From the NCBI GenBank assembly GCA_965655095.1, contig OZ296651.1, forward strand, positions 30,628,001 to 30,692,000: DNA of 64,000 bases, in the 5' to 3' direction. The translations under genes were made by a program, and so were the position numbers. The stretch comes from Haplodiscus bocki. Lineage: Eukaryota. The notes beneath the pieces are model-generated. The model was not told where the DNA came from. It saw only the letters and a list, made by a program, of their open reading frames with translations, and searched no databases. Position 1 is the stretch's first letter. Every line of letters begins with the position of its first letter. Positions 19,901 through 56,743 of the stretch are shown here, one piece after another.

Positions 19901-19909
19901 AGTTACGAT

Positions 19910-20750: not shown

Positions 20751-20759
20751 AATTAAACG

Positions 20760-27526: not shown

Positions 27527-27930
27527 TTAAACCAAACATAATAAAGCTGATTTAAAATCGAATTTTAACGTTTTGGTTAAGTAAATATGATATAAACAAA
27601 AGCCAGCAGCGTAACTATCAATTCCTCCTGTCTTAGGTTCAGGAAAAACACATTCTTCGTTTTTTCTATTGATCAAATCAGCTAATACCTTGAGAATCCG
27701 CAAGAGCATCCGCAAAAGTCAAAATAACTTTTATTCAGGTAAAAAAACCAATATGTGCCTGTGCTACGGTGGAGACTCACAAAACTTCTTTCTTTTGTAA
27801 GTTTACTATCTCTAACGTATGATTTTTCATTTAAAACTATTTTGTTCAATACCTCTTCTATTCTTTTATTTAATATTGCTTGATTTTTCGAATTCACTTC
27901 ATTAACAAATCCGGTAATAGTTAGTGCCAT
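27527..27930 (-). pseudogene. adenain-like cysteine protease remnant
   Basis: GTYWFFY...YFDFCG (GTHWV...YFDSYG type) and DSYAAGFCLY. Confidence 0.8.
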
Positions 27931-28079
27931 TGTTGTTCCTCTCTTTTCAAATTTTCCTCCACGTCTTTTGTTAGAAGTAAAATAAAGCTTAAAGTCTTCA
28001 TCTTTATCATCATAAATATGGAATAAACCAACGTCATGTAGTAGTTGTATTGTGGCTTTGAGGCAATTATGTCTTTAGG

Positions 28080-29915
28080 AGGTCTTTAAATAGGTTTTGT
28101 ACTAGGTATATCTGAAGGTCCTTCCAAATTAAAGTTTGATAGGATTCAAGTTCATCAAAAAATCATGCTCAACCAATGCGTAATCAGAGACATGATATTT
28201 TAAATTATGTGTTTTTTATTTAATTGCGTAAGTGTACAACTTTTTTTATCTAGTTGATCTATATCGTCTTCAAAAAAGTAGTTCTATGGCGTTAACCTAA
28301 CAACAAAAGTAGCAAAAGAAAGACAGACAGATTTTTTTAGAAATATAATAAGGTTGTTGTTCTTCAGTAAGGGTACAAGGTTTAGTTATCGCTTCTGCTC
28401 TCTTTTGTTTCCGATTTCGTTTTTCTTAATAGTTTTCAGATTTGATTTTCTTTCATGACCAATGCCTTTAATAGCTTTTGTTTTATTTATCAATCTAGCA
28501 TGAACTCTGCAAGTATCACATTAATGATAGTTTTGTGATTTTTTTTTCGTTTCCTTGAAGGTTTTCGGTATTTTCATGTTTCCTTTTGTGGACATAGGGG
28601 CTTTATACTTTAGAATTATGACACTTGACTTTTTGACAAATATATTGTTGGCTTGTATCGAAATTTTTTTGTACATTTATCACATCTATTTTTTTTGTCC
28701 TGTTTCAACTATGTGTTTCTCTGATTGTATTTTTTCTACATGCCTTAGGGGAAAAAATAATGTTCCAAAGACCACAACGTCTTTTTGTGAATTGTCCTAA
28801 TTTCTTTTTGTTTTTCGAATTCTAAATTTTTTGTAGAATTTTTTTTCTTTTTCTTACAACCATCACACATATTCATATTTGTAGTCCTTGACGACAGCTC
28901 AATCTTTCTTTAAGGATTTAAAAATTTTGACTTGATTTTTTAAAAAAAGTGGTTAAGTATATTTGATTGTATATATATCTAATCGGCTTACCTTTTAGGA
29001 AGTCTTCCGCACCTTTCACAAATTTTAGTGATCAGTTTCGCTTCAAATAATTAGAAAAAAATACCAGCATGAACTTCAGCTGCTGTCGTCATTTATTACA
29101 TAATAAAGTTTTCGAATTTTTTTATTCGAAACCTTCATTGAGTTCACGACTGAGGTATAGTAAGTGAAATTAAGTCTGTTGAAAATGCAATTCTTTTTCA
29201 CGTATAAAACAACATGCAATGTTTTTTTTAAAAATTTTTTGTGAAATTGAATATTCTGTTGCTTGAAACAGTAAAAACAAAAAACCATTTATATTGGTTC
29301 TCTTTCATTCATATATGCTCTATCATATAATAGCCTAGCTACGTTCCCACCAAAATCGATGATTAAAAGCTGTTACTAGCTTAAATCACTGATTTGATTC
29401 CGGTTTGCGATAGAATATTGTATTTCTACTGGTTAAGGTCACCTAAAAGGCGTAGTCAGCCTGTCCCCATGTCATTGGTAGACAGTTATGGTGAAATAGC
29501 TCACATTCAGAGGCATATCCCGCGGGAGGGGGAAGTCGGTTTGCTAGAGTCTGCACAAAAACGCATTACGTTATGTTCCTTACCAGGAATGCTCAAGAGA
29601 GTTGGCCAGTAAAGTGTTCTTTTTCATGCAGCTAAATTAAGATATGAAATAGCCCTAGCATAAAGCGTGTGTCTTGTGCAGTGAAAATACACTTAAGGCT
29701 AGGCGTGTATTTTCTTTCATCTTAAACAGGGTTCAATTGTTTTGTGTGTGAATGTAAAGCAGTCAATATAGGAAAACATGACGTCATTTTTTTGTTTTGA
29801 GTCGGTTTTTGCGGGTAAATGTGAAAGAAACTATATAGTGAATTAGAATGTTTTTTTTTGGCGCAGAAGTTTTTTGATTGGGGTCTGTATCTACAATGTG
29901 GATTATATCTCTGCT
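28080..29915 (-). repeat. right TIR of the Maverick
   Basis: Inverted copy of 14985-16790. Confidence 0.88.
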
Positions 29916-33142: not shown

Positions 33143-34258
33143 GGGGGCAGGACAAAACAGCCGATTTTAAATGAGACAAAACCGCCGATTTTGGAAACGG
33201 GACAAAACCGCCGATTTCGAAAATGAGACAAAACCGCCGATTTTGGAAACGGGACAAAACCGCCGATTTCGAAAATGAGACAAAACCGCCGATTTTGGAA
33301 ACGGGACAAAACCGCCGATTTCGAAAATGAGACAAAACCGCCGATTTCGAAAATGAGACAAAACCGCCGATTTCGAAAATGAGATTAAAGAGCCGTTTTT
33401 AAAGTGAGACAAAACCGCCGATTTTCTAGAAGAGAACAAATTGCCATCAAAATTTGTTTCTCTGATAAAAGCGTCTTGGCCTAATTATCGATAATTAGCA
33501 ATTATATTACCAATTACTATAAGAAGCTGAGATATCACTATCTAAATGCAATTTCCTTCAGTTTTTGCCGCTAATAAATTTTCGAGAACGCCAACAACAA
33601 AGATTCTATTGAAACCCTCGCTTCCATTTAACCTAAATTTGTAGTACCCACCTATCTTTTGTCTACCAAACTCCTCTGAATAAATAAAATTTCTGAAAAA
33701 ACTAAAACGCCATTACCAAAAAATTCAGAACTGGTCTTTTCGGATATTTTCGGTTCATGCAATTGTGTATCAGGAAAAATCAGAAAATTATTTGGTGCAA
33801 AAAATAAAATAGGTTGTTTTTTGTGAGAATTTCTCAGTTCCATTGGCATTTCCTTAGATGACAGAAACTTTAGTCTTGAAGATGTTGGAATTATCAAATT
33901 TCATAATTTTTTGTTCGTGGCCGTCCAGAATTTTTTAAACTTGGCTTTGGTTCAAACTTTTTAAACTTTGGGTATTTTAGGCTTATAGTTATTTTGGGTT
34001 TGGTATTTAGAGAGTATAACCATTTCATTAGTATATGAGTAATTTAATTGCTAATTATCCGTAATTAGGCCAAGACATTTTTATCTTGAACAACCTTTAT
34101 TTTTACAAAGACTAGCGATCTGTAATATTAAGAATCGGCGGTTTTGTCCCACTTTAAAATCGGCGGTTTTGTCTCATTATCAAAATCGGATATTTTGTCC
34201 CGTTTTCAAAATCGGCTGTTTTGTCCCGTTCTAAAATCGGCGGTTTTGTCTCGCATCC
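33143..34258. mobile_element. non-autonomous foldback/Mutator-like DNA transposon with subterminal 26-bp tandem repeats
   Basis: (GACAAAACCGCCGATTTYGRAAAYGR)n at 33151-33425, inverted at 34133-34251; inner inverted repeat 33471-33504 / 34046-34082; 8-9-bp TSD (c)ctatattt at 33134-33142 and 34258-34266. Confidence 0.85.
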
Positions 34259-39300: not shown

Positions 39301-40021
39301 CACAAATGACAGGATATCTCTCAATCTGTGATCCTGATCAGCTAACTGACGAACTCAAACCGTGGTTGAGTTCCGACGCCCATGCATCCAGCTGCAGTGT
39401 AATTGGTTGCTGACGTCAATCACAACAGTCAAATTATCGTAAGGAAATGTCAAAATGGTTTTTTTTTGGATTTTTTTGCCTCAGAAGCCAAGAAATTCTG
39501 CCTTAAGTAATACCAAAAACTACGAAAGTCAATGATAAACACGTGTGCGGATAGTGCGGTAAAACGGTAACGCGACGGTAACGCGCTCAACAACGAGGTA
39601 ACGCCAGATACTGCTCAACGTCAACAACATACAATTTCACGTTCACGTAAACGTAAAATTGAGAAGCAATGGTCAAATGAACTTGCACGTGTGTTTTTAT
39701 GCTAGTATTTCCTTTTATTCATCGCCTGCTAATAGCCTAGTGGTATTTGTTACATTGACAAAATTTAAGGCTGTGCTTGCATAGTCATCGTGTTTGTGGT
39801 TCACGATTAACCAACGTCTCACTGTCTTTGTAACATCACGCGCGAAAGCTATATGGAGGAACTGTCTATGTCTTGAAGCTTGAAAAAGTAGAATTGATCG
39901 ACGGGGATATCCACCAGGAACGCTCCCTCGCTAGACAGCTGAAAAGCTCGACACGAAGGTTGGCCAGTGGATATTTTTGTCCTAATGTGAAAACACGATT
40001 TCTGAGAAATACACACACTAT

Positions 40022-40330
40022 GACAACATACCTTAAACATGTAGAGATTATAAAATTTTAAGCTATCTTGACGTGTGATATGCCATTGGATAGCCCGTTG
40101 AAAAACTAGATTACCCTGGAAATTTCAACCTTGTATCTACTATAATCTTCGAGAAAATTGACAAAATCAGTATATGTCGACATACCTTAAACATGTAGAG
40201 ATTATAAAATTTTGAGCTATAACAAAGTGTGATATATCATTGGACAGCCCATTGAAAATGAAGTTTACGCTGAAAAATTCAACCCTGTATCTGCTACCAT
40301 TTTCGAGAAATTAACAAATCAGTATTTGTA
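40022..40330. repeat. two ~154-bp direct repeats in the terminal non-coding region (mirrored at about 55940-56246)
   Basis: cataccttaaacatgtagagattataaaatttt at 40027 and 40181. Confidence 0.85.
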
Positions 40331-40690
40331 AAGTAAAAGAAAAAATTAAACTTATTCATACAAGTATGCGAACAATTATAACATCATTCGTATTTGAATA
40401 GTTGTAATTATACACTCAACACACGAGACAACGTGTTCGAATACTTATATCAACACCAACCCACATAATGCGGATCATTGTTAACAATAATACTATTATA
40501 AATGAATGTTGATAACATTTATAAATCTGATTCCGATTTTGAAGATTTAGTTTACAGTGGTAAAAATCTCCAAGTTGTTTATTTCGACAATATTGAACAA
40601 TTTAAACAAACCGAAAAAAACTCGATAAATTGGTGGTTTTGACCACGACCCTAACACCATACAATATATCATAATTGAACCTAGAATAGA

Positions 40691-43600
40691 TTAGAAATCC
40701 GTATTTCTTTTTCTCATATTTTCGCTATGACACGCTCTACATAAGGTTTAGTTTTCAATATAATTTCCAGTGTTTATTTCGGCTTCATATTTACTACATC
40801 TTTTAATTGGTATTTGAACGGGTTTATCTATAACTATGTTGTTTTCGGTTTCATAATACGGAAGCATGTGACCAAATTCGTTTTCTGGTTGTCGCTTTAA
40901 TTTGTTGATCTCTACCGATTATTCTGCTATACGAGATATTTTCCTCAAACAATCTTGACAACTTTTACTTATTTCACAATTGAAACAATTCATTTCTGGT
41001 TTTATTGCGCAACCAACACATTTTTTACTTTCATCGCAATTCTCACAACCAACTTTACGATGTGGTATCTTAATACCGGCTAGTTCACGTTTCCATTTTA
41101 GTTTTGATATGTTTTTTAGTGTTTTACCTTGTTCCAGATCGAGAAAATCTTTAAAATTTATGTTATTGATGTTTTGGTTAAATCCTTTGAAAGTTGACTT
41201 TTGAGATAATATACGATTTTCATTGATAACAATACAGTATTTAACTTTGGGAGCTAAAAACAAACCATAGACAATTCCAGCGTTCTCACCATAATCGTTT
41301 TTAGATTGAAATAGGTCTTTACCAACCAACCCTTTTTCTATTGGCATATTTTAATCAATTTTGTGAATATATACACTATCCGTGTCTCCATAGTAAATTT
41401 TATTGTTTTTAAAACCATCTAGAGCCAATATAACATCCTTCATTAACCTTTTCGAATGCGATCATATGAGAGATCCAAATTGAAATGGTTGACTATTTAC
41501 TTTTTTACTCACACCATTGTCGTCTACACCGTTATGATCTTTAACGTTTACTAGATAATTTCCGTTTTTGAGAGGGATATATTCTTTTACTCTATCATCG
41601 TATTCTGTTTTCATCCAGTTTTCCGATACACATTTTAAAATTTCATGAATATCGCATCTAATACAACCACCGTACGTACCGTTTGATATTTGTTTACACA
41701 TATCTTGTAAGATAGTTTTACCCGGTTTCTTATTTTCGTTTCTCTTCACCGTCATATCTAAAATATACTCTTTGAACCGATTGTAATCGAGATTATCACA
41801 GATAAAACCCTCGTAAAATTCTTTAATAACACCGCCAATCCTTACAACTTCTTCAATATCAACACTGGTTAGATGTTGGGTTACGTCTCCATTTCTAAAT
41901 CGGTTAATACATTCACATTTGTTATCGGTCTCGTTGTAGACATCTTCTTTAACAGCCATATGTTGTAGAATCAAGTTCTCGGGATTGTGATATTCAACTC
42001 TAAAAAATCCTGTTTTATTCAAAGAAGCCCATTCGCCGGTGTTAAACAATTTACAATATTCTTCACTATCTTCCGATTTATTGCTTTTGCTGTTTGTATT
42101 GCGGGCCAGGTTGATTTTATATGAGCCATTGCTGAAGGACATAAACTATTATAATCGCTACTAACTAAGAGGTCCGATTTATCGATTTTGTTTGATTCTT
42201 TGGAAATTGGCAGGCTAGACAATTTTTTCTTGATATAATTTTCGAAATGTTGTTTGTTTGTTTTCCTATATTCATCGAATTTGTTTTCATATTTATTCGT
42301 ATATTGTTTTTTGACTTTATCTAATCGTTGAAAGTATATTTCAAATAATTTTGATATTTCATGTTCTTTACCAAAGTATTTCTTAAGTATGTTTACTATT
42401 TGATTAAATGAGGTTGATACAAATTTACGATTCAGAGCAACAACCCTACCACCGTGTACACTTCTATGAATGAAATCTCGAACATATTTATTTTTTGGTG
42501 TATAGAACGTTTTTGCTGATTGTTTCATGTATTTCCCCAAAGTAGACCATGCTAGAGAAGATTCTGTTAACGAATTTTTAAACGAAACAGCTGTTATTTT
42601 TTGAATTTTGTTACCGTGTTTTGCTACTACTGCTGCTAGTCCTAATACGTCGTCTATGAGATATGGTTTCCATAATTTTTCATGTTCTTTGTAATTCGAT
42701 AAATTTATTAGATTATGATCGATTTCACCTTTAATTAGTTGTGGTTGAATATTGTATTCTTTTTGTATTTTCTTTAAGGATCCCGAGATATGTACTTTTG
42801 AACAGACAAATTTCATGTATTGCGGTATTTCTTTATCGTTTTCATAGACAGTTCCAACTCTAAAGCTTAGTTTTAAAAATCCTCGAGATGTTTTTATGAT
42901 TTTCATGTCTTTGTCTGTATATTCTTTCGGTAGCGAATTCAAAACAATAGCATTATCAAAACCACTAGCATTGTGACCGATTAGTTGATATCTATGAGAC
43001 GATATTTTGAGCTCACCGTTTTTATCTTTGAAATATTTTGGCTTACCTTTATAATTTGTGGTGATATATTTAATCATACCTAGAACAGGGTTATTGTTAG
43101 CGCGATCAAATATCTGAACATGCTGTCTTTCGATTTCTAATTCTTCTTCTGTCAAATCACCGTTGTAACATTCTTTTAAACGATCTAGATGATAACAACC
43201 CGCCGCATATGTTTCACAAAATTCTTGATATGGCATATGGCACGTTAACAGTTTCGAGATCAAAAGAAAACACTGCAAACAAACAATCTTTCTCATTAAA
43301 TATAGGGAATTTATATTCAACAACTTGTTTTAAAATGTTATCATTAATATGGTCAGGTTGGTATTCGAAATTCTTTTCTAATTCTTTGATCGCATCAGTG
43401 AAATTTGTTTTCTCCCTTTTCCATATCACACAAAAATTGTTTTGATGGATAAATAGACAAATTCTTCGTTCTTTTATAGAAAGTGGTAGAATTCTTTTCT
43501 GTTTTAAATCATAAACACCAAGATTGATGTTGTGCTTTTTACAGAATGGTTGTATTTTAGCGGATGTCATTATATTTTTGTTTCTTTGCGATTCTTTAAT

Positions 43601-44278
43601 AAATTCACGATATCGGTGCGAGAAGTCTTTTTTGTTAATAAATTCTAAACATTTTCTGAAGCATTCGTTTTCCTCAGGTATATAACACAGATTACCTCGA
43701 TATTCTAGAATTTTTTCAAAACTATCGCAACCTGTTTCATACTTACTTCGTTGTATTTTATTGAATGTTTTAGCGTATCTGATTAATTCTCCCGTAAATG
43801 TAATGTTCAGGGTTTCATCATCTTTATCATTTACCTTCTCGAATCTTTTATCAAGTTGCTCGCCGTCTTTAAAGAGAGCATTAATCGTGCTAGGGTCATT
43901 ATCGTTTATTCTAATTTCACCTTTTAATATGAATGGATATCCATCTTTAATATTTTCAAAAATCTCATGAATTGAATCATTTTCGAATATAACCACGTTG
44001 TGTTCTACAATATCTAGAAATTTTTTAAAATCAATCTCGTCATCTTGTTTAATACCACTAAAATCAAACGGATTTGTTTCACCATATTGTTCAATATCTC
44101 GAATTCTCTGGTTAACGTCGTTTAATTCAAATATTTTGTTTTGAAGTCTGGTGTTTAACTCGTTTTTGGAATCGTTTAAAACATCGAGCTGTTTCAGGTT
44201 TGTGGTGTTTTTTATTTTATTAATAACCACATCTATTCTGTGTTCCAATAATTCAATTTTTTTGATAATTTTTTCCAT
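40691..44278 (-). pseudogene. protein-primed-type family B DNA polymerase, left-arm copy (disrupted)
   Basis: Exo motifs FDLET, HNASGFD, YLIDDV; SVHGGR; motif A DYNSLCPSAM; motif B KQISNGTYG; motif C YGDTDS (intact here); arm-specific 7-bp duplication near 43235 and stop at 41351. Confidence 0.93.
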
Positions 44279-44381
44279 TTATAATATAGAAAACCGTTGA
44301 ATTAAAATATATTTGTTGATAAAAGTAGTATTTTAAACTATGATATAAAAAGTATTCAATAATTTATACTTAAATAAAAGG

Positions 44382-44706
44382 ATGAACAAAACGAAATAAT
44401 TAAAATATGTCGTGCTTGCGGTCACGAAAGAGAGTATGATAATTATCATCGTTTATATGTTGCATGCAAAAAATGCGCGAGTGCACGATCTGTTAAACAC
44501 TATCAAAAAAATAGAGAAAAATATTGGAAAAAGCTAGAATTTATCGTGAAAATAATAAAGACAAACTTAAACGAAACAGAAAAACTATTGACACATGCAC
44601 GGAAAATATACAAGATCTTTACAATCAGATTAACACCTTAACAGAGATGCTGAAACTACCACATTATTTGGTTAGAACGCCGTTGATTCGTGAACACAAC
44701 AAATAA
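44382..44706 (+). pseudogene. small CxxC...CxxC basic protein (frameshifted); mirror at 51566-51890
   Basis: CRACGHERE...CKKCASAR...YQKNREK/ILEKARIYRENNKDK. Confidence 0.6.
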
Positions 44707-44771
44707 CAACAGAATCGTTAACAGTTCAATTTTAAAAAATAATATTGAAAAAATAATTATCTATTTTAAAC

Positions 44772-45528
44772 ATGACTGCATTAATGTGTCAAGTAACGTG
44801 TACCTTGTGTAACATAAAAATTGATGAAACAGAATTGAAAAAACACATAATTTCTACAAAACATTTACAAAATTGTAAAAACGTTGACGATGAAATTGCA
44901 ATAAAAATTTTTGAGATGATTTTTGAGGTAAGACAGGAAAAGAAGAGAATATTTAATTTAAAAAATGAAAAAACACACAATTTCTGGCAACTATATTTTT
45001 CAACAAAGCTACCAAAAGAGGAGTTTGATGCATTATTTAATAATTCAGTCGACAAATTGGAAATAGAAAAAAAATCTTACAACAGATTTTAATGATTTTA
45101 TATCAAAAGTAACACCTATTATCGGGGAAATTTATTTTGGTTCAATGAAAGATATAACATTCTGTAAGATTTGTAGTATTGAAATAAAAAAATCACTGCT
45201 TTAGGATCACATTAATTCAAAGGAACACAAAAAAATTGAAGATTATTTTATTAGGAAATGTATGACTTATTGTGAACTTTGTTGTAAAGAAATAAGAAAT
45301 GATGAATGGAGAGATCATGTAATTTCGGAGAAACATTTAGGGTTTGAAGAAAAAAAATATTGTTTGTACTGCAATATGAAATATGATAATCATAGTAAAT
45401 ATAATTATAGTAGTTATGGTAATCAAGAAAGAGCATATATTAGACATAAAAACCATATATCTAACAGTCACCTAGATAGCGAGTTTCATAGGAGAAATGT
45501 GGAGAGATTTGATTTTTATGCTAATTAG
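44772..45528 (+). pseudogene. four-finger C2H2 (CxxC...HxxxxxH) zinc-finger protein, left copy
   Basis: CTLC..HIISTKH, CKIC..HINSKEH, CELC..HVISEKH, CLYC..HLDSEFH; frameshift near 45070 and stop near 45202. Confidence 0.8.
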
Positions 45529-45592
45529 ATTTTTATAATCATTATGGTTGTTTAATCAGAATTTTTATAATTATGGGTACTTCCGTATTTAA

Positions 45593-46075
45593 ATGAATAA
45601 AAGATTTTCATATGATAATATTATCAAATCACGATCAAAAGAGCCAAATGACTTAATTAGAACATATAAGCTAGATCGATGTTGTGATTTTATGGAAAAA
45701 AAATTCACTAATCCCAGATTAACACAAAAACAAATTTGTAAACAATTAAGATTTTCCGATAGTACTATTAAACGATATAGAGACGATATTAAAATGGATA
45801 GTCCTTATAGATGAAATAATCACAAAAAGAAAAAACCTAAGCAATCACCAGGTACTACAACAGAAAATATTTCCAAGAAAGAAAATACTAAATCAGTTAC
45901 AAATAAGAGATCTAAAAACAATGTTATAAAAGGTGGTAATACCCACACATTAACCGGTAGAGAATTAATCGATCAAGCTTTTCAGAATGATAAAGCAGAC
46001 TCTGTTTTAGAAAACAATCAAAAAGATAATAAAAAATATTTTACAATAGCTAGAAGAATGGTGGATAATGTTTAA
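45593..46075 (+). pseudogene. HTH-motif DNA-binding protein, left copy (one in-frame stop)
   Basis: LTQKQICKQLRFSDSTIKRYR; the TGA at 45812 is AGA in the right arm. Confidence 0.7.
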
Positions 46076-46134
46076 AAACACATATACTTGTACGAATATA
46101 CGAGTTTCTTTTTGCAAACAATCATTATTATTAA

Positions 46135-46530
46135 ATGGATAAAATAGAACAAGAAATAAAGCAAGATGAAAATACGATAAATGACATTGCAGAAAAATTA
46201 GAACTCGTCTCTAACACTAATATGGTTACAGAAGAGGAACTTTTACAAAAATTTGTTGCCAAAGATGTAATAAAAAACAAGATGATCACCGTTGCTGGCC
46301 AAATGTTTATTGAATATGAGAAAGAAATAGATAATTCTAATCAAATAATCAAAGGATATGAAGATTATATCGGTGATGATAAAATCAGAAAGGATATATT
46401 AGACAAAGTTTGTGGAGAAAACATAAAAGAAGTTTCTTCTGAGAAAGATGAAATTTATAAAAATAATTTTATTAATAGATTTATCAAAATTAAAAATATT
46501 AATAAACGAGAAATGCTATCAAACAAATAA
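46135..46530 (+). CDS. 131-aa hypothetical protein, coiled-coil-like
   Basis: Intact ORF; mirror copy at 49734-50130. Confidence 0.6.
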   Translation: MDKIEQEIKQDENTINDIAEKLELVSNTNMVTEEELLQKFVAKDVIKNKMITVAGQMFIEYEKEIDNSNQIIKGYEDYIGDDKIRKDILDKVCGENIKEVSSEKDEIYKNNFINRFIKIKNINKREMLSNK

Positions 46531-46654
46531 TTATTGTTATGAAAAGTATCAAAAATCTTTTATTATTCTTTTTATGTGCAAGGTATAAATTTTTTTAGTA
46601 TTTTAATTGATATATTGCTTCGTTAGCTATATTATTAACAAGTTCTGTTCTCAT

Positions 46655-46816
46655 TTATCTTTTCTTATAGTGTGTTTCTATTATCATTGAGTTAGTACAT
46701 GAGTTTTTTAAAACGTTATTAGCATGTCCTTGAGATTTTAAATGGGTTTGATAATTATCAGGCAAAACAGATATGTGACAAACACCACAATAAATTCTAT
46801 TTTGTACACAAGGCAT
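46655..46816 (-). CDS. 53-aa single C2H2 zinc-finger peptide
   Basis: MPCVQNRIYCGVCHISVLPDNYQTHLKSQGH; not in the ORF track; paralogous to the neighbouring 145-aa ORF. Confidence 0.65.
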   Translation of the reverse strand: MPCVQNRIYCGVCHISVLPDNYQTHLKSQGHANNVLKNSCTNSMIIETHYKKR

Positions 46817-46883
46817 TTTTTTATAATTTAGATAAATTATTTCAATTTTTTGTATACAAAACTCTCAAAAATAATATTTCAGT

Positions 46884-47321
46884 TCACATCTTTATCCTTA
46901 TATATACATATCCATCGCGGCAATAGACATATTCTCCCAACGTTATCCCCATAACATTATATAACTTTTGTAACACTTCTTTACCTTCTGTACTTGATTC
47001 ACCATCATAATGATTAGAGAACTTTAATAACAAAATTTCAGAACCAATATCTTTTGCTGTTGTTTGGTTACTTTCTATAATTTTTTTAACGTTTGAAAAG
47101 TCTGTCTTTATGCTATCATTCGTTTCAAGAGATACCTTATTCATACAACATGTGAGATCATGGTTGTCACGATGGGTTATATCATTATTACAACCACAAC
47201 ATTGCTTTCTCATAACGTTAATATAATGTCCTTTAGATTTTAAATGGTTTGAATAATTATTACGAAAATACGAGTTTTTACAATCACTACAGTAAATTCT
47301 GTTGTTTTGAGCACAATACAT
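46884..47321 (-). CDS. 145-aa C2H2 zinc-finger protein
   Basis: NRIYCSDCKNSYFRNNYSNHLKSKGH; intact in both arms. Confidence 0.75.
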   Translation of the reverse strand: MYCAQNNRIYCSDCKNSYFRNNYSNHLKSKGHYINVMRKQCCGCNNDITHRDNHDLTCCMNKVSLETNDSIKTDFSNVKKIIESNQTTAKDIGSEILLLKFSNHYDGESSTEGKEVLQKLYNVMGITLGEYVYCRDGYVYIRIKM

Positions 47322-47415
47322 TTTTTTATTTGGATAATTTACTTCAATTATGAATAAACAATAGTGATAACAGATTTCAACATATCAGAAAAGTAACAAT
47401 TCACTTGAAACATAG

Positions 47416-47950
47416 CAGTTACATAAAACGTAACAGTTACATAAAACGTAACGGTTACATAAAACGTAACAGTTACATAAAACGTAACAGAACAGATCAG
47501 AACAGATCAGAACAGATCAGATCAGAACAGATCAGAACAGATCAGAACAGATCAGAACAGTTCAAAGTGTACTTTTTATCATCTAAGTAAATTAAAATAT
47601 GATATACACACATTTGATTAGAAGAAGAATATGTTATTTGAGATTTCAAATTTATTTGATTAGAAGAAGATTATGGTATTTGAGATTTGATTAGAAGAAG
47701 ATTATTTTGTTTGAGATTTGTTTAGAACAAGATTATGTTATTTGAGATTTCAAAATTATTTGATTAGAAGAAGATTATATTTTTTGAGATTTGATTAGAA
47801 GAAGATTATGGTCTTTGAGATTTCAAAAATATTTGATTACAAGAAGATTATGTTGTTTGAGATTTCAAATTTATTTGATTAGAAGAAGATTATGTTGTTT
47901 GAGATTTCAAAATTTTTCGATTAGAAGAATACTATGTTGTTTTGATATTT
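47416..47950. repeat. left subcentral satellite block: 18-bp x4, (AACAGATCAG)n, and ~31/42-bp GATTAGAAGAAGATTAT repeats x~9
   Basis: Seen directly. Confidence 0.92.
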
Positions 47951-48124
47951 CTTAATTTTAGAATAAACACACAATGTCCTGTGAAAATTCAAGGTATTTG
48001 TACTTTTTAGCATCTACATAAAGTAAATTATGGTTATGAAAAGTCAATTGATTAGGTCAAATCGAATAATAATGCACTTATAAACGTTAAAACGTCACGA
48101 GAGTTCAATGCGAGTTCACCAGTG

Positions 48125-48227
48125 GCACATATTTACAAGTAATAACCTATATGTGAGTATATCATTAGCGAGCTTACAGCTCACTGAATAAACATATTTA
48201 CAAGTAATAACTTATAAGTAAGTACAT
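48125..48227. other. structured palindrome centre: axial hairpin plus two direct quasi-palindromic sites
   Basis: GAGCT-TAC-AGCTC centred at 48176, the midpoint of the arm ends 48124 and 48228; ACATATTTACAAG-TAATAA-C(C/T)TATA.. at 48127 and 48192. Confidence 0.8.
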
Positions 48228-48409
48228 CACTGGTGACCTCGACCTGAACTCTCGTGACGTTTTAACTTTTTTAAGTGCATTATTATTCGATTTGACCTAA
48301 TCAATTGACTTTTCATTACCACATTTTACTTTATGTAGATGCTAAAAAGTACAAATACTTTGAATTTTCACAGGACATTGTGTGTTTATTCTAATATTTA
48401 GAAATATCA

Positions 48410-48850
48410 AAACAACATAGTATTCTTCTAATCGAAAAGGTTTGAAATCTCAAACAACATAATCTTCTTCTAACCAGATAATTTTGAAATCTCAAATAAT
48501 ATAATCTTCTTCTAATCAAATAATTTTGAAATCTCAAATAACATAATCTTCTTCTAATCAAATCTCAAATGCCATAATCTTCTTCTAATCAAATAATTTT
48601 GAAATCTAAAATAGCATATTCTTCTTCTAATCAAATGTGTGTATATCATATTTTAATTTACTTAGATGATAAAGAGTACAATTTGAACTGTTCTGATCTG
48701 TTCTGATCTGTTCTGATCTGATCTGTTCTGATCTGTTCTGTTACGTTTTATGTAACTGTTACGTTTTATGTAACTGTTACGTTTTATGTAACTGTTACGT
48801 TTTATGTAACTGTTACGTTTTATGTAACTGTTACGTTTTATGTAACTGCT
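48410..48850. repeat. right subcentral satellite block (inverted; 18-bp x6, long unit x~6)
   Basis: Seen directly; copy numbers differ from the left arm. Confidence 0.92.
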
Positions 48851-48942
48851 ATATTTCAAGTGAATTGTTACTTTTCTGATATTTTGAAATCTATAATCAC
48901 TATTATTCATTCATAATTGAAATATATTATCCAATTAATAAA

Positions 48943-49380
48943 ATGTATTGTGCTCAAAACAACAGAATTTACTGTAGTGATTGTAAAAACTCTTATTTTC
49001 GTAATAATTATTCAAATCATTTAAAATCTAAAGGACATTATATTAACGTTATGAGAAAGCAATGTTGTGGTTGTAATAATGATATAACCCATCGTGACAA
49101 CCATGATCTCACATGTTGTATGAATAAGGTATCTCTTGAAACGAATGATAGCATAAAGACAGACATTTCAAACGTTAAAAAAATTATAGAAAGTAACCAA
49201 ACAACAGCAAAAGATATTGGTTCTGAAATTTTGTTATTAAAGTTCTATAACCATTATGATGGTGAATCAAGTACAGAAGGTAAAGAAGTGTTACAAAAGT
49301 TATATAATGTTATGGGGATAACGTTGGGAGAATATGTCTATTGCCGCGATGGATATGTATATATAAGGATAAAGATGTGA
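48943..49380 (+). CDS. 145-aa C2H2 zinc-finger protein, right copy
   Basis: Two amino-acid differences from 46884-47321. Confidence 0.75.
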   Translation: MYCAQNNRIYCSDCKNSYFRNNYSNHLKSKGHYINVMRKQCCGCNNDITHRDNHDLTCCMNKVSLETNDSIKTDISNVKKIIESNQTTAKDIGSEILLLKFYNHYDGESSTEGKEVLQKLYNVMGITLGEYVYCRDGYVYIRIKM

Positions 49381-49447
49381 ACTGAAATATTATTTTTGAG
49401 AGTTTTGTATACAAAAAATTGAAATAATTTATCTAAATTATAAAAAA

Positions 49448-49609
49448 ATGCCTTGTGTACAAAATAGAATTTATTGTGGTGTTTGTCACATATCTGTTTT
49501 ACCTGATAAATATCAAACCCATTTAAAATCTCAAGGACATGCTAATAACGTTTTAAAAAACTCATGTACTAACTCAATGATAATAGAAACACACTATAAG
49601 AAAAGATAA
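49448..49609 (+). CDS. 53-aa single C2H2 zinc-finger peptide, right copy
   Basis: MPCVQNRIYCGVCHISVLPDKYQTHLKSQGH...KKR*. Confidence 0.65.
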   Translation: MPCVQNRIYCGVCHISVLPDKYQTHLKSQGHANNVLKNSCTNSMIIETHYKKR

Positions 49610-49733
49610 ATGAGAACAGAACTTGTTAATAATATAGCTAACGAAGCAATATATCAATTAAAATACTAAAAAAATTTATACCTTGCACATAAAAAGAATA
49701 ATAAAATTTTTTTGATACTTTTCATAACAATAA

Positions 49734-50130
49734 TTATTTGTTTGATTGCATTTCTCGTTTATTAATATTTAAAATTTTAATAAATCTATTAATAAAATTA
49801 TTTTTATAAACTTCATCTTTCTCAGAACAAACTTCTTTTATTTTTTCTCCACAAACTTTGTCTAATATATCCTTTCTGATTTTATCATCACCGATATAAT
49901 CTTCATATCCTTTGATTATTTGATTAGAATTATCTATTTCTTTCTCATATTCGATAAACATTTGGCCAGCAACGGTGGTCATCTTGTTTTTTATTACATC
50001 TTTGGCAACAAATTTTTGTAAAAGTTCCTCTTTTGTAACCATATGAGTGTTAGAGACGAGTTCTAATTTTTCTGCAATGTCATTTATCGTATTTTCATCT
50101 TGCTTTTTTTCTTGTTCTCTTTTATCTATT
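49734..50130 (-). pseudogene. coiled-coil-like hypothetical protein, right copy (original ATG lost)
   Basis: Mirror of 46135-46530. Confidence 0.55.
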
Positions 50131-50188
50131 TAATAATAATGATTGTTTGCAAGAAGAAACTCGTATCTTCGTACAAGTATATGTGTTT

Positions 50189-50581
50189 TTAAACATTATC
50201 CACCATTCTTCTAGCTATTGTAAAATATTTTTTATTATCTTTTTGATTGTTTTCTAAAACAGAGTCTGCTTTATCATTCTGAAAAGCTTGATCGATTAAT
50301 TCTCTACCAGTTAATGTGTGGGTATCAGAAACATTACCACCTTTTATAACATTGTTTTTAGATCTCTTATTTGTAACTGATTTAGTATTTTCTTTCTTGC
50401 AAATATTTTCTGTTGTAGTATCTGGTGATTGCTTAGGTTTTTTCTTTTTGTGATTATTTCTTCTATGAGGACTATCCATTTTAATATCGTCTCTATATCG
50501 TTTAATAGTACTATCGGAAAATCCTAAATGTTTACAAATTTGATTTTGTGTTAATCTGGGATTATTGAACTTTTCTTCCAT
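50189..50581 (-). CDS. HTH-motif protein, right copy (5' part disrupted)
   Basis: LTQNQICKHLGFSDSTIKRYR. Confidence 0.65.
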   Translation of the reverse strand: MEEKFNNPRLTQNQICKHLGFSDSTIKRYRDDIKMDSPHRRNNHKKKKPKQSPDTTTENICKKENTKSVTNKRSKNNVIKGGNVSDTHTLTGRELIDQAFQNDKADSVLENNQKDNKKYFTIARRMVDNV

Positions 50582-50744
50582 AAAATCACAACATCAATCG
50601 AGTTTATATGTTCTAATTAAGTCATTTGGCTCTATTGATCGTGATTTGATAATATTATCATATGAAAATCTTTTTTTGATTTATATACGAAAGTACCCAT
50701 AATTATAAAATTTCTGATTAAACAACCATAATTATTATAAAAAC

Positions 50745-51500
50745 CTAATTAGCACAAAAATCAAATCTCTCCACATTTCTCTTATGAAACTCGCTATCTA
50801 GGTGACTGTTAGATATATGGTTTTTATGTGTAATATGTGCTCTGTCTTGATTACCATAACTAGTACAATTATATTTACTATGATTATCATATTTCTTGTT
50901 GCAGTACAAACCATATTTTTTTTCTTCAAACTCTAAATATTTCTCCGAAATTACATGATCTCTCCAATCATCATTTCTTATTTCTTTACAACAAAGTTCA
51001 CAATAAGTCATACATTTCCTAAAAAAATAATCTTCAATTCCTTTGTGTTCCTTTGAATTAATGTGATCATAAAGCAGTGATTTCTTTATTTCAATACTAC
51101 AAATCCTACAGAATGCTATATATTTCATTGAACCAAAATAATTTTTCCCGATAATAGGTGTCACTTTCGATATAAAATCATTAAAATCTGTTGTAAGAGT
51201 TTTCTCTATTTCCAATTTGTCGACTGAATTATTACATAATGTATCAAACTTCTCTTTTGGTAGATTTTCTGAAAATTATAGTTGCTAGAAATTGTGTGTT
51301 TTTTCCTTTTTCAAATTAAATATTCTCTTTTTTTCCGGTCTTACCTCAAAAATCATCTCAAAAAATTTTATTGCAATTTCATCGTCAACGTTTTTACAAT
51401 TTTGTAAATGTTTTGTAGAAATTATGTGTTTTTTCAATTCTGTTTCATCAATTTTTATGTTACACAAGGTACACGTTACTTGACACATTAATGCAGTCAT
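50745..51500 (-). pseudogene. four-finger C2H2 protein, right copy (251 codons, one in-frame TAG at 51285)
   Basis: ORFs 51285-51500 and 50745-51215 are in the same frame; the left arm has TGG at the stop position. Confidence 0.8.
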
Positions 51501-51993
51501 GTTTAAAATAGATAATTATTTTTTCAATATTATTTTTTAAAATTGAACTGTTAACGATTCTGTTGTTATTTGTTGTGTTCACGAATCAACGGCGTTCTAA
51601 CCAAATAATGTGGTAGTTTCAGCATCTCTGTTAAGGTGTTAATCTGATTGTAAAGATCTTGTATATTTTCCGTGCATGTGTCAATAGTTTTTCTGTTTCG
51701 TTTAAGTTTGTCTTTATTATTTTCACGATAAATTCTAGCTTTTTCCAATATTTTTCTCTATTTTTTTGATAGTGTTTAACAGATCGTGCACTCGCGCATT
51801 TTTTGCATGCAACATATAAACGATGATAATTATCATACTCTCTTTCGTGACCGCAAGCACGACATATTTTAATTATTTCGTTTTGTTCATCCTTTTATTT
51901 AAGTATAAATTATTGAATACTTTTTATATCATAGTTTAAAATACTACTTTTATCAACAAATATATTTTAATTCAACGGTTTTCTATATTATAA

Positions 51994-54900
51994 ATGGAAA
52001 AAATTATCAAAAAAATTGAATTATTGGAACACAGAATAGATGTGGTTATTAATAAAATAAAAAACACCACAAACCTGAAACAGCTCGATGTTTTAAACGA
52101 TTCCAAAAACGAGTTAAACACCAGACTTCAAAACAAAATATTTGAATTAAACGACGTTAACCAGAGAATTCGAGATATTGAACAATATGGTGAAACAAAT
52201 CCGTTTGATTTTAGTGGTATTAAACAAGATGACGAGATTGATTTTAAAAAATTTCTAGATATTGTAGAACACAACGTGGTTATATTCGAAAATGATTCAA
52301 TTCATGAGATTTTTGAAAATATTAAAGATGGATATCCATTCATATTAAAAGGTGGAATTAGAATAAACGATAATGACCCGAACACGATTGATGCTCTCTT
52401 TAAAGACGGCGAGCAACTTGATAAAAGAATCGGGAAGATAAATGATAAAGATGATGAAACCCTGAACATTACATTTACGGGAGAATTAATCAGATACGCT
52501 GAAACATTCATTAAAATACAACGAAGTAAATATGAAACAGGTTGCGATAGTTTTAAAAAAATTCTAGAATATCGAGGTAATCTGTGTTATATACCTGAGG
52601 AAAACGAATGTTTCAGAAAATGTTTAGAATTTATTTACAAAAAAGACTTCTCGCACCGATATCGTGAATTTATTAATGAATCGCAAAGAAACAAAAATAT
52701 AATGACATCCGCTAAAATACAACCTTTCTGTAAAAAGCACAACATCAATCTTGGTGTTTATGATTTAAAACAGAAAAGAATTCTACCACTTTCTATAAAA
52801 GAACGAAGAATTTGTCTATTTATCCATCAAAACCATTTTTTTGTGATATGGAAGAGGGAGAAAACAAATTTCACTGATGCGATCAAAGAATTAGAAAAGA
52901 AATTTGAATACCAATCTGACCATATTAATGATAACATTTTAAAACAAGTTGTTGAACATAAATTCCCTATATCTAATGAGAAAGATTGTTTGTTTGCAGT
53001 GTTTTCTTTTGATCTCGAAACTGTTAACGTGCCATATCAAGAATTTTGTGAAACATATGCGGCGGGTTGTTATCATCTAGATCGTTTAAAAGAATGTTAC
53101 AACGGTGATTTGACAGAAGAAGAATTAGAAATCGAAAGACAGCATGTTCAGATATTTGATCGCGCTAACAATAACCCTGTTCTAGGTATGATTAAATATA
53201 TCACCACAAATTATAAAGGTAAGCCAAAATATTTCAAAGATAAAAACGGTGAGCTCAAAATATCGTCTCATAGATATCAACTAATCGGTCACAATGCTAG
53301 TGGTTTTGATAATGCTATTGTTTTGAATTCGCTACCGAAAGAATATACAGACAAAGACATGAAAATCATAAAAACATCTCGAGGATTTTTAAAACTAAGC
53401 TTTAGAGTTGGAACTGTCTATGAAAACGATAAAGAAATACCGCAATACATGAAATTTGTCTGTTCAAAAGTACATATCTCGGGATCCTTAAAGAAAATAC
53501 AAAAAGAATACAATATTCAACCACAACTAATTAAAGGTGAAATCTATCATAATCTAATAAATTTATCGAATTACAAAGAACATGAAAAATTATGGAAACC
53601 ATATCTCATAGACGACGTATTAGGACTAGCAGCAGTAGTAGCAAAACACGGTAACAAAATTCAAAAAATAACAGCTGTTTCGTTTAAAAATTCGTTAACA
53701 GAATCTTCTCTAGCATGGTCTACTTTGGGGAAATACATGAAACAATCAGCAAAAACGTTCTATACACCAAAAAATAAATATGTTCGAGATTTCATTCATA
53801 GAAGTGTACACGGTGGTAGGGTTGTTGCTCTGAATCGTAAATTTGTATCAACCTCATTTAATCAAATAGTAAACATACTTAAGAAATACTTTGGTAAAGA
53901 ACATGAAATATCAAAATTATTTGAAATATACTTTCAACGATTAGATAAAGTCAAAAAACAATATACGAATAAATATGAAAACAAATTCGATGAATATAGG
54001 AAAACAAACAAACAACATTTCGAAAATTATATCAAGAAAAAATTGTCTAGCCTGCCAATTTCCAAAGAATCAAACAAAATCGATAAATCGGACCTCTTAG
54101 TTAGTAGCGATTATAATAGTTTATGTCCTTCAGCAATGGCTCATATAAAATCAACCTGGCCCGCAATACAAACAGCAAAAGCAATAAATCGGAAGATAGT
54201 GAAGAATATTGTAAATTGTTTAACACCGGCGAATGGGCTTCTTTGAATAAAACAGGATTTTTTAGAGTTGAATATCACAATCCCGAGAACTTGATTCTAC
54301 AACATATGGCTGTTAAAGAAGATGTCTACAACGAGACCGATAACAAATGTGAATGTATTAACCGATTTAGAAATGGAGACGTAACCCAACATCTAACCAG
54401 TGTTGATATTGAAGAAGTTGTAAGGATTGGCGGTGTTATTAAAGAATTTTACGAGGGTTTTATCTGTGATAATCTCGATTACAATCGGTTCAAAGAGTAT
54501 ATTTTAGATATGACGGTGAAGAGAAACGAAAATAAGAAACCGGGTAAAACTATCTTACAAGATATGTGTAAAAAAATATCAAACGGTACGTACGGTGGTT
54601 GTATTAGATGCGATATTCATGAAATTTTAAAATGTGTATCGGAAAACTGGATGAAAACAGAATACGATGATAGAGTAAAAGAATATATCCCTCTCAAAAA
54701 CGGAAATTATCTAGTAAACCTTAAAGATCATAACGGTGTAGACGACAATGGTGTGAGTAAAAAAGTAAATAGTCAACCATTTCAATTTGGATCTCTCATA
54801 TGATCGCATTCGAAAAGGTTAATGAAGGATGTTATATTGGCTCTAGATGGTTTTAAAAACAATAAAATTTACTATGGAGACCCGGATAGTGTATATATTC

Positions 54901-55577
54901 ACAAAATTGATTACAATATGCCAATAGAAAAAGGGTTGGTTGGTAAAGACCTATTTCAATCTAAAAACGATTATGGTGAGAACGCTGGAATTGTCTATGG
55001 TTTGTTTTTAGCTCCCAAAGTTAAATACTGTATTGTTATCAATGAAAATGGTATATTATATCAAAAGACAACTTTCAAAGGATTTAACCAAAACATCAAT
55101 AACATAACTTTTAAAGATTTTCTCGATCTGGAACAAGGTAAAACATTAAAAAACATATCAAAACTAAAATGGAAACGTGAACTAGCCGGTATTAAGATAC
55201 CACATCGTAAAGTTGGTTGTGAGAATTGCGATGAAAGTAAAAAATGTGTTGGTTGCGCAATAAAACCAGAAATGAATTGTTTCAATTGTGAAATAAGTAA
55301 AAGTTGTCAAGATTGTTTGAGGAAAATAACTCGTATAGCAGAATAATCGGTAGAGATCAACAAATTAAAGCGACAACCAGAAAACGAATTTGGTCACATG
55401 CTTCCGTATTATGAAACCGAAAACAACATAGTTATAGATAAACCCGTTCAAATACCAATTAAAAGATGTAGTAAATATGAAGCCGAAATAAACATTGGAA
55501 ATTATATTAAAAACTAAACCTTATGTAGAGCGTGTCATAGCGAAAATATGAGAAAAAGAAGAAATACGGATTTCTAA
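51994..55577 (+). pseudogene. protein-primed-type family B DNA polymerase, right-arm copy (~1,190 codons reconstructed)
   Basis: 750-aa, 226-aa and 174-aa ORFs plus read-through tail; Exo I-III; motifs A, B and C (here YGDPDS); FLAPKVKY; TFKG; Cys-rich C-terminus. Confidence 0.93.
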
Positions 55578-56743
55578 TCTATTCTAGGTTTAATTATGAT
55601 ATATTGTATGGTGTTAGGGTCGTGGTCAAAACCACGAATTTATCGAGTTTTTTTCGGTGTGTATAAATTGTTCATTATTGTCGAAATAAACAACTTGGAG
55701 ATTTTTACCACTGTAAACTAAATCTTCAAAATCGGAATCAGATTTATATATGTTATCAACATTCATTTATAATAGAATTATTGTTAACAATGATCCGCAT
55801 TATGTGGGTTGGTGTTGATATAAGTATTCGAACACGTTGTCTCGTGTGTTGAGTGTATATTTACAACTATTCAAATACGAATAATGTTATAATTGTTCGC
55901 ATACTTGTATGAATAAGTTTAATTTTTTCTTTTACTTTACAAATACTGATTTGTTAATTTCTCGAAAATGGTAGCAGATACAGGGCTGAATTTTTCAGCG
56001 TAAACTTAATTTTCAATGGGCTGTCCAATGATATATCACACTTTGTTATAGCTCAAGATTTTATAATCTCTACATGTTTAAGGTATGTCGACATATACTG
56101 ATTTTGTCAATTTTCTCGAAGATTATAGTAGATACAAGGTTGAAATTTCCAGGGTAATCTAGTTTTTCAACGGGCTATCCAATGGCATATCACACGTGAA
56201 GCTAGCTTAAAATTTTATAATCTCTACTTGTTTAAGGTATGTTGTCATAGTGTGTGTATTTCTCAGAAATCGTGTTTTCACATTAGGACAAAAATATCCA
56301 CTGGGCAACTTTCGTGTCGAGCTTTCCAGTTGTCTAGCGAGGGAGCGTTCCTGGTGGATATCCCCGTCGATCAATTCTACTTTTTCAAGCTTCAAGACAT
56401 AGACAGTTCCTCCATTTAGCTTTTGCGCGTGATGTTACAAAGACAGTGATACGTTGGTTAATCGTGAACCACAAACACGATGACTATGCAAGCACAGCCT
56501 TAAATTTTGTCAATGTAACAAATACCACTAGGCTATTAGGAGGCGATGAATAAAAGGAAATACTAGCATAAAAATACACGTGCAAGTTCATTTGACCGTT
56601 GCTTCTCAATTTTACGTTTACGTGAACGTGGAATTGTATGTTGTTGACGTTGAGCAGTATCTGGCGTTACCTCGTTGTTGAGAGCGTTACCGTCGCGTTA
56701 CCGTTTTACCGCACTATCCGCACACGTGTTTATTATTAAAGTC

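Follow-up and report, generated by a model that had tools for sequence, protein, structure and literature searches.

How did an element with the 6-bp target-site duplication of a Polinton, and with no integrase of its own, come to be inserted in the genome of Haplodiscus bocki? The locus lies in a window of 64,000 nucleotides (the whole stretch of DNA that was analysed). We consider it probable that it represents a decayed member of a long-lived lineage whose elements are palindromic over their whole length. These palindromes have neither integrase nor capsid genes, their ends are those of Polintons in the same genome, and they are likely to be integrated by a helper and probably replicate via a fold-back hairpin.

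A palindrome from its ends to its centre

The boundaries and the architecture of the element are as follows.

39525..39530, plus strand: left target-site duplication AAAGTC
39531-56737: element of 17,207 bp, palindromic from ends to centre
39531..48124, plus strand: left palindrome arm, about 8.6 kb, 97% complementary to the right arm
39531..40400, plus strand: left terminal region, about 0.8 kb, homologous to the terminal inverted repeat (TIR) of helper Polintons, starting AATGATAAAC
48228..56737, minus strand: right palindrome arm
55870..56737, minus strand: terminal region of the right arm, starting AATAATAAAC
56738..56743, plus strand: right target-site duplication AAAGTC

The exact duplication reported in the initial annotation was confirmed, the two AAAGTC copies abutting the termini AATGATAAACACGTGTGCGG and AATAATAAACACGTGTGCGG on their outer side. 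They flank an inverted repeat, as expected of Polinton ends, which here spans the entire element, and alignment of arm against arm gave 97% identity (8,360 aligned bases, 8,321 matches, 210 mismatches). Duplication exceeds chance, given that an exact 6-bp repeat flanks 14 of 28 other palindromic copies and one with a single mismatch flanks another 5. The overall length of 17 kb falls within the Polinton range, as had been proposed, but is made up of two copies of an 8.6-kb unit. The left terminal region matches helper TIRs at 76-86% and contains a double repeat with a period of 154 bp. The assembly contains the left flank once; no empty-site contig was present among the contigs listed, the longest flank contigs entering the element by just 28 bases, fewer than the 31 required.

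Assembly gaps at the centre of many family members and inverted flanks in two copies would be compatible with an artefact generated from fold-back reads. Such an origin of the palindrome is nevertheless extremely improbable because the flanks differ and carry the exact duplication on both sides, 210 sites distinguish the arms, and unrelated loci keep a two-sided centre. Moreover, exactly matching contigs of a sequencing run, probably from the assembly's own sample, have about one or two times the flank depth (16.5 and 31.9 versus 16.3; 30.7 and 63.3 versus 32).

Every gene is doubled as a consequence of the 8.6-kb inverted repeat, and each arm holds a broken pPolB, a CxxC ORF, a multi-finger ORF, an HTH ORF, a 131-aa helical ORF and two single-finger ORFs:

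40750..44278, minus strand: pPolB of the left arm, broken
about 44772-45528, plus strand: mirror copy of the multi-finger ORF
45593..46080, plus strand: HTH gene, broken here (about 160 aa in open copies)
46135..46530, plus strand: 131-aa all-helical ORF, confined to palindromic copies
about 46650-47321, minus strand: mirror copies of the single-finger ORFs
48943..49609, plus strand: pair of single-finger ORFs, directed away from the centre
49734-50129, minus strand: mirror copy of the 131-aa helical ORF
about 50189-50680, minus strand: mirror copy of the HTH gene
50745..51515, minus strand: multi-finger C2H2-type ORF, split here (about 245 aa in open copies)
51566..51894, minus strand: CxxC zinc-ribbon ORF, split here (99 aa in open copies); helpers have one too
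51994..55517, plus strand: pPolB of the right arm, beginning at TAAATG and split into several ORF pieces

The pPolB, C2H2 fingers, HTH protein and CxxC protein assigned at first sight are thus present, with the correction that neither arm of this copy has an unbroken pPolB. All four lesions of the right arm recur in the left arm, which has two extra ones. The element's pPolB matches at 85% a helper polymerase bearing PF03175, and what we take to be exonuclease-type motifs are visible in its ORF. Based on an invariant cysteine and histidine (C210, H281) and on the available text of PMC11161782 and PMC8502044, the N-terminal part of pPolB is likely to comprise a terminal protein and an OTU-like protease domain. 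In a fold search with the predicted N-terminal model the coiled coil dominated, with a weak OTU row at E 0.41. The HTH gene is a distant homologue of a left-end gene of the helper. The predicted structure of the 131-aa protein is all helical at low confidence (pLDDT 50), and none of the members of its two homologue sets (632 and 197) is named. The CxxC ORF matches positions 60-159 of the 271-position profile of a phage Endonuclease VII family (E 1e-6); it was rejected as a resolvase, its 99 aa corresponding to part of this profile with no catalytic motif recognised.

The absence of integrase, capsid and ATPase, on which the initial interpretation was built, was borne out by three approaches. 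No Pfam match to any of them was obtained in 20 element ORFs, and when 20 helper proteins were compared with the element by tblastn the polymerase alone matched. When helper-gene profiles were run over all 364 stop-to-stop frames of at least 25 aa in the element, the best scores were 6.0 bits for integrase, 2.7 for capsid and 10.9 for ATPase. The positive control, a decayed Polinton in another part of the window, gave 61.9, 42.9 and 60.9 bits, respectively. None of the small ORFs proved to be an integrase or recombinase in our searches, and Pfam searches of the element ORFs detected no helicase. An adenain-type protease had no Pfam match in the element ORFs or in the 38 helper ORFs scanned (a search with no local positive control), and its absence therefore does not separate the element from its helper.

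Helper Polintons and a lineage of palindromes

If the integrase is supplied in trans, its source should have the same ends. Among 15 other end-pairs of the same genome with an identical 20-nt terminus, seven are ordinary Polintons with matches to an rve integrase, a double-jelly-roll capsid and an A32 ATPase and with TIRs of about 1 kb; the predicted integrase-positive helper is thus there. The remaining eight are palindromes with no matches to integrase, capsid or ATPase. Close integrase matches in the genome number at least 136, mostly with open frames. These findings support integration in trans, and a helper integrase is likely to insert the palindromic element.

The palindromes form a family of their own. 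Of 150 scored HTH matches, 79 occur in head-to-head pairs and none in tail-to-tail pairs. The pairs that were fetched proved without exception (20/20) to be inverted repeats without integrase. Fifteen of 16 unpaired matches sampled adjoin an assembly gap on their inner side, the other being a full palindrome. Assemblies break at palindromic elements, which are for this reason probably under-reported. An inner module is common to all palindromes and is absent from helpers or just 30-47% similar there, and no integrase-bearing element with this module was present among 36 HTH-chosen loci (one integrase match lies across an assembly gap). The dN/dS ratio is 0.15 for the helical ORF (21 open copies) and 0.41 for the HTH gene (12 open copies). 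As judged from this purifying selection on their own genes and from an inherited centre, the palindromes are a lasting lineage. The family marker had no relative in viral contigs and was found in two short contigs in metagenomes.

Cassette exchange, matched arms and the centre

Polymerases of palindromes and helpers interleave, a single palindrome clade being rejected (p-AU 2e-63, 20 rows) in a tree that is nearly star-like among close rows, and some palindromes differ less from a helper (4.7%) than from one another. Palindromes and helpers alike carry one of two cassette types, an AAT end with polymerase 1 or an AGT end with polymerase 2. One exception (L049/050, helper-type) combines an AAT end with polymerase 2 and has flanks that are inverted, not duplicated. 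The inner module is not sorted by polymerase type, at least six changes being forced (p-AU 9e-42, 33 rows).

The interleaving of polymerases and end sequences, and the proximity of some palindromes to a helper, would fit a model in which palindromes arise singly, as defective products of a helper Polinton folding back, comparable to the hairpin derivatives of linear plasmids obtained in the laboratory, each having integrated once and never propagated. This model is very improbable and largely refuted by the shared inner module with its signature of purifying selection, by the inherited centre and by the lack of an integrase-bearing carrier of the module among the HTH-chosen loci.

A polymerase is present on both arms in 26 of 28 copies, and its type is identical between the arms in all 26, copies that are related by descent and do not represent independent events. 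The two polymerase-less copies (L059, L129/130) are symmetric and have exact duplications. That both arms match in 26 of 26 copies despite cassette exchange points to a fold-back intermediate, while mixed-end copies might instead be absent through selection against them, not through repair. The mechanism that we infer involves hairpin and dimer molecules, a terminal protein, a particle and a trans-acting integrase. The AAT (or AGT) end would be the start of protein-primed strand displacement, and the displaced strand would snap back over its full length, giving a duplex hairpin of 9 kb in which a single origin is open. Where one end is unpaired or foreign, it would be trimmed and then recopied from the opposite arm, and both arms would as a result carry the same cassette. 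A new round through the loop would restore the inverted dimer of 17-18 kb, presumably the sole form with two integrase-ready ends, which the helper integrase would insert. Helper capsids may package this dimer because its length matches that of the helper (median 17.8 kb for 20 palindromes versus 18.1 kb for 10 helpers, a match that could stem from selecting pairs under 20 kb). Finally, the inserted copy would decay, its arms partly converting each other.

Conversion between the arms after insertion indeed appears to occur, given that six of seven copies show patchy divergence between their arms (p below 1e-8) and that both arms have polymerase lesions in common in seven of eight; homogenisation of the arms during assembly may also be a source of identity patches. 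Patchy divergence and common lesions are as expected from such conversion, and arm identity was therefore rejected as proof of hairpin replication. For the same reason arm divergence is unsuited to dating the insertion of such palindromes, a use that we considered and abandoned. Conversion could even be thought to account for the symmetry alone, the element then being an ordinary non-autonomous Polinton with very long TIRs and no fold-back replication. We regard this as improbable since chromosomal arm-to-arm conversion would have had to copy whole unrelated 5-kb cassettes together with the terminus, leaving the duplication intact, in 26 of 26 copies, and since 2 of 20 copies still have a large indel (867 and 1,924 bp) confined to one arm.

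Fold-back replication, which we prefer, directs attention to the centre of the palindrome:

47386..47952, no strand: tandem-repeat arrays with 18-, 10- and 31/42-bp units, adjoining the centre
48102..48250, no strand: imperfect central hairpin, motifs A and B around an AT-rich, poorly paired loop
48102-48118, plus strand: motif A (AGTTCA-ATGCG-AGTTCA)
48234-48250, minus strand: motif B (AGTTCA-GGTCG-AGGTCA)
about 48403-48860: mirror tandem-repeat arrays

Twenty-seven copies were picked by gene pair or terminus. In all 22 that could be scored, the two sides of the centre carry unlike motifs; these 22 again are related by descent and not independent events. Two sequence types of the centre exist, and a similar spacer contrast is kept in both. 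One A/A and one B/B copy occurred in a set of 29 rows. Taken together, the comparison indicates that the two-sided centre is inherited and not newly formed. By eye, a T-run/TAAAT resembling poxvirus concatemer-resolution sequences is seen near the centre of some copies. The palindrome as a family trait, the polymerase-cassette swap with helpers and the conserved imperfect hairpin centre go beyond the initial annotation.

Poxvirus and parvovirus ends are cut by a resolvase or a nickase. It is tempting to speculate, in a stronger form of the fold-back explanation, that the true replicon is a monomer of 9 kb, one of its ends bearing a terminal protein and the opposite one being an imperfect hairpin that is covalently closed, and that the dimer is cut at its centre in each cycle by such an enzyme. 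In line with this idea, the position of a three-base mismatch bubble and the spacer contrast are the same in the two centre types, and the AT-rich loop has tandem repeats on its flanks. In addition, part of polymerase 2 of the helpers resembles Endonuclease VII, with an E value of 1.4e-4 that does not reach the Pfam cut-off, and TAAATG starts hint at a poxvirus-type setting. By contrast, no resolvase or HUH gene was found in the element, plain snap-back explains the symmetry with no cutting needed, and the centre motifs could be promoters or protein-binding sites of the outward-reading finger genes. On balance, the monomeric replicon is rather unlikely.

To our knowledge, almost all that has been described of Polintons in animals derives from sequence, and replication through a self-annealed single strand has been modelled for them, not observed. 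Whole-length complementarity, ends that always match despite swaps, and a helper-like length are indirect signs of replication by fold-back, of co-replication and of packaging limited by size. The lineage also indicates that Polintons have evolved their own satellites. We tentatively raise the possibility of a new class of animal mobile element, namely a linear replicon of 9 kb that is protein-primed at one end and closes at the opposite end in an imperfect hairpin resembling those of poxviruses or parvoviruses. It would travel and integrate as an inverted dimer by means of Polinton integrase and capsid, swap origin-plus-polymerase cassettes with that Polinton, and form the third level in a chain of parasites (large DNA virus, Polinton, palindromic satellite).

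Relation to known systems

Our literature search returned no description of palindromic Polintons, families of which may be present in Repbase, Dfam, subscription journals or supplements. According to the available text of two sources (PMC8097293; bioRxiv 10.1101/2023.08.22.554363), in which the words palindrome and hairpin do not occur, Polintons/Mavericks have pPolB, a 6-bp duplication, a length of 13-25 kb and inverted repeats of 0.1-1.5 kb, and in nematodes two distant pPolB types are swapped between otherwise similar elements. The palindromic element shares pPolB, the duplication and a length within this range, as well as the termini of complete Polintons in its genome, and its family resembles nematode Polintons in swapping pPolB types. 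It differs in lacking integrase, capsid and ATPase, in its 8.6-kb inverted repeat and in its conserved imperfect hairpin centre.

Hairpin and inverted duplex forms are also known from fungal plasmids. The pGKL hairpin plasmid of Kikuchi et al. (1985) is said to be a protein-primed linear replicon cut to one arm that occurs in both forms, and Vierula and Bertrand (1992) reportedly described a kalilo deletion derivative with one arm and the same two forms. Whereas these are deletion products, the palindromes are an evolved lineage with selected genes of its own and many integrated copies with duplications.

Transpovirons, as portrayed in the available text of PMC11161782, are capsid-less linear elements derived from Polintons/PLVs that depend on another virus and parasitise giant viruses; their pPolB is fused to a superfamily 1 helicase and has lost the exonuclease. 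The palindromic element is likewise a capsid-less member of the Polinton/PLV group that would depend on another virus. Unlike that of transpovirons, its pPolB is collinear with a full-length helper pPolB; the element also has 6-bp duplications and is palindromic. The entomopoxvirus-associated PLVs Ca_PLV1 and AHEV_PLV1 are integrated with no detectable integrase, and integration in trans has been proposed for them; by contrast with our element they have retained genes for morphogenesis, and the available text (PMC11296320) does not describe them as palindromic. As in a satellite, the palindromes have the termini of an integrase-coding partner, and 19 of the 28 other copies show a 6-bp duplication with no or one mismatch. 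The enterococcal linear plasmid pELF1 (143 kb, conjugative) has one hairpin end and one protein-bound end, according to the available text of PMC6863802. This is the layout predicted for a monomer of the palindrome family, although pELF1 is bacterial and its genes are unrelated; an inverted dimer with a conserved imperfect hairpin junction, as expected of a replicon combining hairpin and terminal protein, is the form found in the H. bocki genome.

Structure and gene content of the window element

The window element spans 17,207 bp (39531-56737) and is a single palindrome: across an alignment of 8,360 bases its arms are 97% identical and mismatch at 210 positions. Its GC content is 25-33% versus 35-42% in the flanks. 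AAAGTC adjoins both termini, which bears out the 6-bp target duplication proposed in the initial annotation. From end to centre, each arm (39531-48124 on +, 48228-56737 on -) contains:

terminal region of about 0.8 kb
pPolB gene, reading outward
CxxC ORF and multi-finger ORF, both directed inward
HTH ORF, reading inward
131-aa helical ORF, also inward
two single-finger ORFs, reading outward
tandem repeats, then the centre

TAAATG is found at the starts of three ORFs of this copy (polymerase, HTH and helical). pPolB is broken in both arms by four lesions on the right and six on the left, and all four right-arm lesions recur on the left when compared in coarse bins.

The initial annotation had also reported no integrase, capsid, ATPase or protease, and for the first three this absence held. 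None of the four was found by Pfam in the 20 ORFs of the element, and tblastn with 20 proteins of helpers (complete Polintons of this genome sharing its 20-nt terminus) matched the polymerase only. Helper-derived profiles gave no convincing match in 364 frames (integrase 6.0, capsid 2.7, ATPase 10.9 bits); in the positive control, a decayed Polinton at 14985-29915, they scored 61.9, 42.9 and 60.9 bits, respectively. Since integrase, capsid and ATPase were each sought and not found, the element is not an autonomous Polinton. Adenain was not detected in 38 helper ORFs scanned.

The control Polinton is an older element, complete but decayed. Its TIRs are 1.8 kb long (78%), and what it retains of integrase, capsid, ATPase and polymerase 2 (one of two pPolB types) are traces only about 30% like helper proteins. 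Elsewhere in the window, broken ORFs at 3203-6947, with endonuclease and reverse transcriptase recognized by eye, look like a LINE retrotransposon, and local tandem arrays lie at 11521-11858 (units of about 59 bp) and 33150-34253 (about 26 bp, with an inverted partner).

In four public runs, contig depth summed over 56004-56609 is thousands of times flank depth; this depth is not copy number, and it suggests that sequence related to the subterminal region forms a highly abundant repeat. Public-run contigs exactly matching the window copy, from runs that are probably the assembly's own sample, have about one and two times flank depth, which fits two real arms.

Palindromes and helpers in the genome

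Of 9,009 HTH candidates 150 were scored; 79 of these belong to head-to-head pairs no more than 20 kb apart, and tail-to-tail pairs do not occur among them. All 20 fetched head-to-head pairs are inverted repeats without integrase; a single weak capsid match (58 bits) occurs in one of these stretches, flank included. Fifteen of 16 sampled unpaired matches adjoin an assembly gap on their inner side (L081-L095, the gap falling on the palindrome centre or close to it) and the sixteenth is a full palindrome; the family is therefore undercounted. The target duplication is exact in 14 of 28 other palindromic copies, and has one mismatch in five and two in one; one further copy has inverted flanks, and seven lack a terminus pair within the stretch. 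The helical ORF was detected in palindromes alone, and the HTH ORF has helper homologues at 30-47%. Mean pairwise dN/dS, computed for open copies of modal length only, is 0.15 for 21 helical ORFs and 0.41 for 12 HTH ORFs. Given these family counts, duplications, family-specific ORFs and dN/dS values, the palindromes are a propagating lineage, and their interpretation as a set of accidents is rejected.

L059 and L129/L130, palindromes that carry no polymerase, have exact 6-bp duplications and represent reduction taken one step further. In L037/L038 and L049/L050 the flanks are mutually inverted copies and the duplication is lacking, owing either to misassembly or to conversion beyond the ends. 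In L125/L126 the arms are only 66-83% alike and no duplication was found; it may be very old, or a hybrid formed from two copies. The family's helical marker is also encoded, with identities of 77% and 96%, on two metagenome contigs of 1.2 kb (L177 and L178).

The genome contains 81 perfect matches to the 20-nt terminus of the window element, and all 15 other end-pairs at most 20 kb apart were fetched. Integrase-positive Polintons sharing this terminus, as the initial annotation had anticipated, account for seven: ordinary elements, each with a single polymerase and TIRs of about 1 kb, in which integrase, capsid and ATPase all gave matches (Pfam rve, DJR-like and Pox_A32). The other eight are palindromes without these three genes, one of them short and polymerase-free. 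At least 136 scored integrase matches at 81% identity or more occur in the genome, most free of internal stops. Insertion of the palindromes very probably depends on a helper. At the left end of one helper-type element (L057:100-360) the terminus occurs three times in tandem at 120-bp spacing.

Cassette exchange, probable arm conversion and the palindrome centre

Palindromes and helpers alike combine AAT ends with polymerase 1 or AGT ends with polymerase 2. The latter has a weak Endonuclease VII domain (L138:2746-6171, L146:2789-6478), a candidate junction-cutting activity. A single palindrome clade is rejected in the polymerase 1 DNA tree (p-AU 2e-63; 14 palindromes, one arm each, and six helpers, 11 rows lacking a long match being omitted), and in the inner-module tree (33 rows) polymerase type has to change at least six times along branches with support (p-AU 9e-42). 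For nematode Polintons, 10.1101/2023.08.22.554363 describes a comparable swap of pPolB. Both arms carry polymerase in 26 of 28 full-size palindromes, always of the same type (26/26); of the remaining two, one is polymerase-free on both arms with an exact duplication and one is gapped. Two of 20 copies retain an indel in only one of their arms (867 and 1,924 bp). We infer that the ends become alike before insertion, within a self-annealed strand.

Polymerase-region divergence is 0.1-4.1% between arms of one copy versus about 5-22% between copies. It is strongly patchy in six of seven copies, and polymerase lesions are common to both arms in seven of eight; both features are seen in the window arms and in L031-L054. 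This suggests arm-to-arm gene conversion after insertion in chromosomal palindromes or, in part, assembly homogenization. Because of the patchiness and common lesions, arm identity neither proves hairpin replication nor dates a copy.

The arms are near-perfect to about 60 bases from the axis and then diverge alike in unrelated loci. In type I centres the RGKTCA-like half-sites enclose different spacers on the two sides, ATGCG on one (motif A, in the window AGTTCA-ATGCG-AGTTCA) and GGTCG on the other (motif B, in the window AGTTCA-GGTCG-AGGTCA). Of 29 type I rows, which include 20 loci picked by likeness to the window centre and count one element twice, 27 are A/B, one A/A and one B/B. A second type pairs CCGACA-CTGCG with GGACA-GGTCG, plus variants; its half-sites differ and its 11-bp period is the same. 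Among 27 copies picked by gene pair or terminus, 17 are of the second type, five of type I and five unscorable, and all 22 scored centres have unlike sides. The window centre is predicted to fold into an extended stem interrupted by bubbles, whose AT-rich tip is loosely paired, the z-score being trivial for any palindrome. The centre may resemble poxvirus and parvovirus hairpin junctions, and its half-sites (48102-48118, 48234-48250) may resemble DR5 nuclear-receptor elements.

Replication model and comparison with known systems

Most likely, protein-primed strand displacement would start replication, the displaced strand would snap back over its full length, ends would be corrected inside the resulting hairpin, and an inverted dimer would be regenerated that the helper integrase inserts and helper capsids possibly package. 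A fold-back intermediate is probable; enzymatic resolution to a hairpin monomer appears rather unlikely. Packaging in helper capsids has about an even chance; median length is 17.8 kb for 20 palindromes versus 18.1 kb for 10 helpers, omitting the 9.2-kb short copy, two inverted-flank copies and a 14.8-kb helper lacking a resolved duplication. TAAATG stands at the first ATG of long ORFs in 14/82 cases in palindromes and 52/93 in helpers, and among all ATGs in 156/4,108 and 213/4,287, counts that include homologous genes repeatedly. Dependence of the palindromes on a large DNA virus is a lead.

A single-strand panhandle model for Polintons appears in parts of PMC4046053 and 10.64898/2026.07.28.741278, the latter giving short terminal palindromes and no others. 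Whole-element palindromes are not described in the sections consulted of PMC11296320, PMC8502044, PMC8097293 and PMC11414722, the last of which notes integrase-free loci that carry pPolB and TIR. Against the description in part of PMC11161782, a transpoviron was rejected for the window element. We found no report of palindromic Polintons in the literature, repeat databases and supplements lying outside this coverage. Fungal protein-primed linear plasmids have hairpin and inverted-duplex derivatives, and the window element would work like these. The predicted monomer, with two kinds of end, would also be like pELF1 as described in part of PMC6863802.
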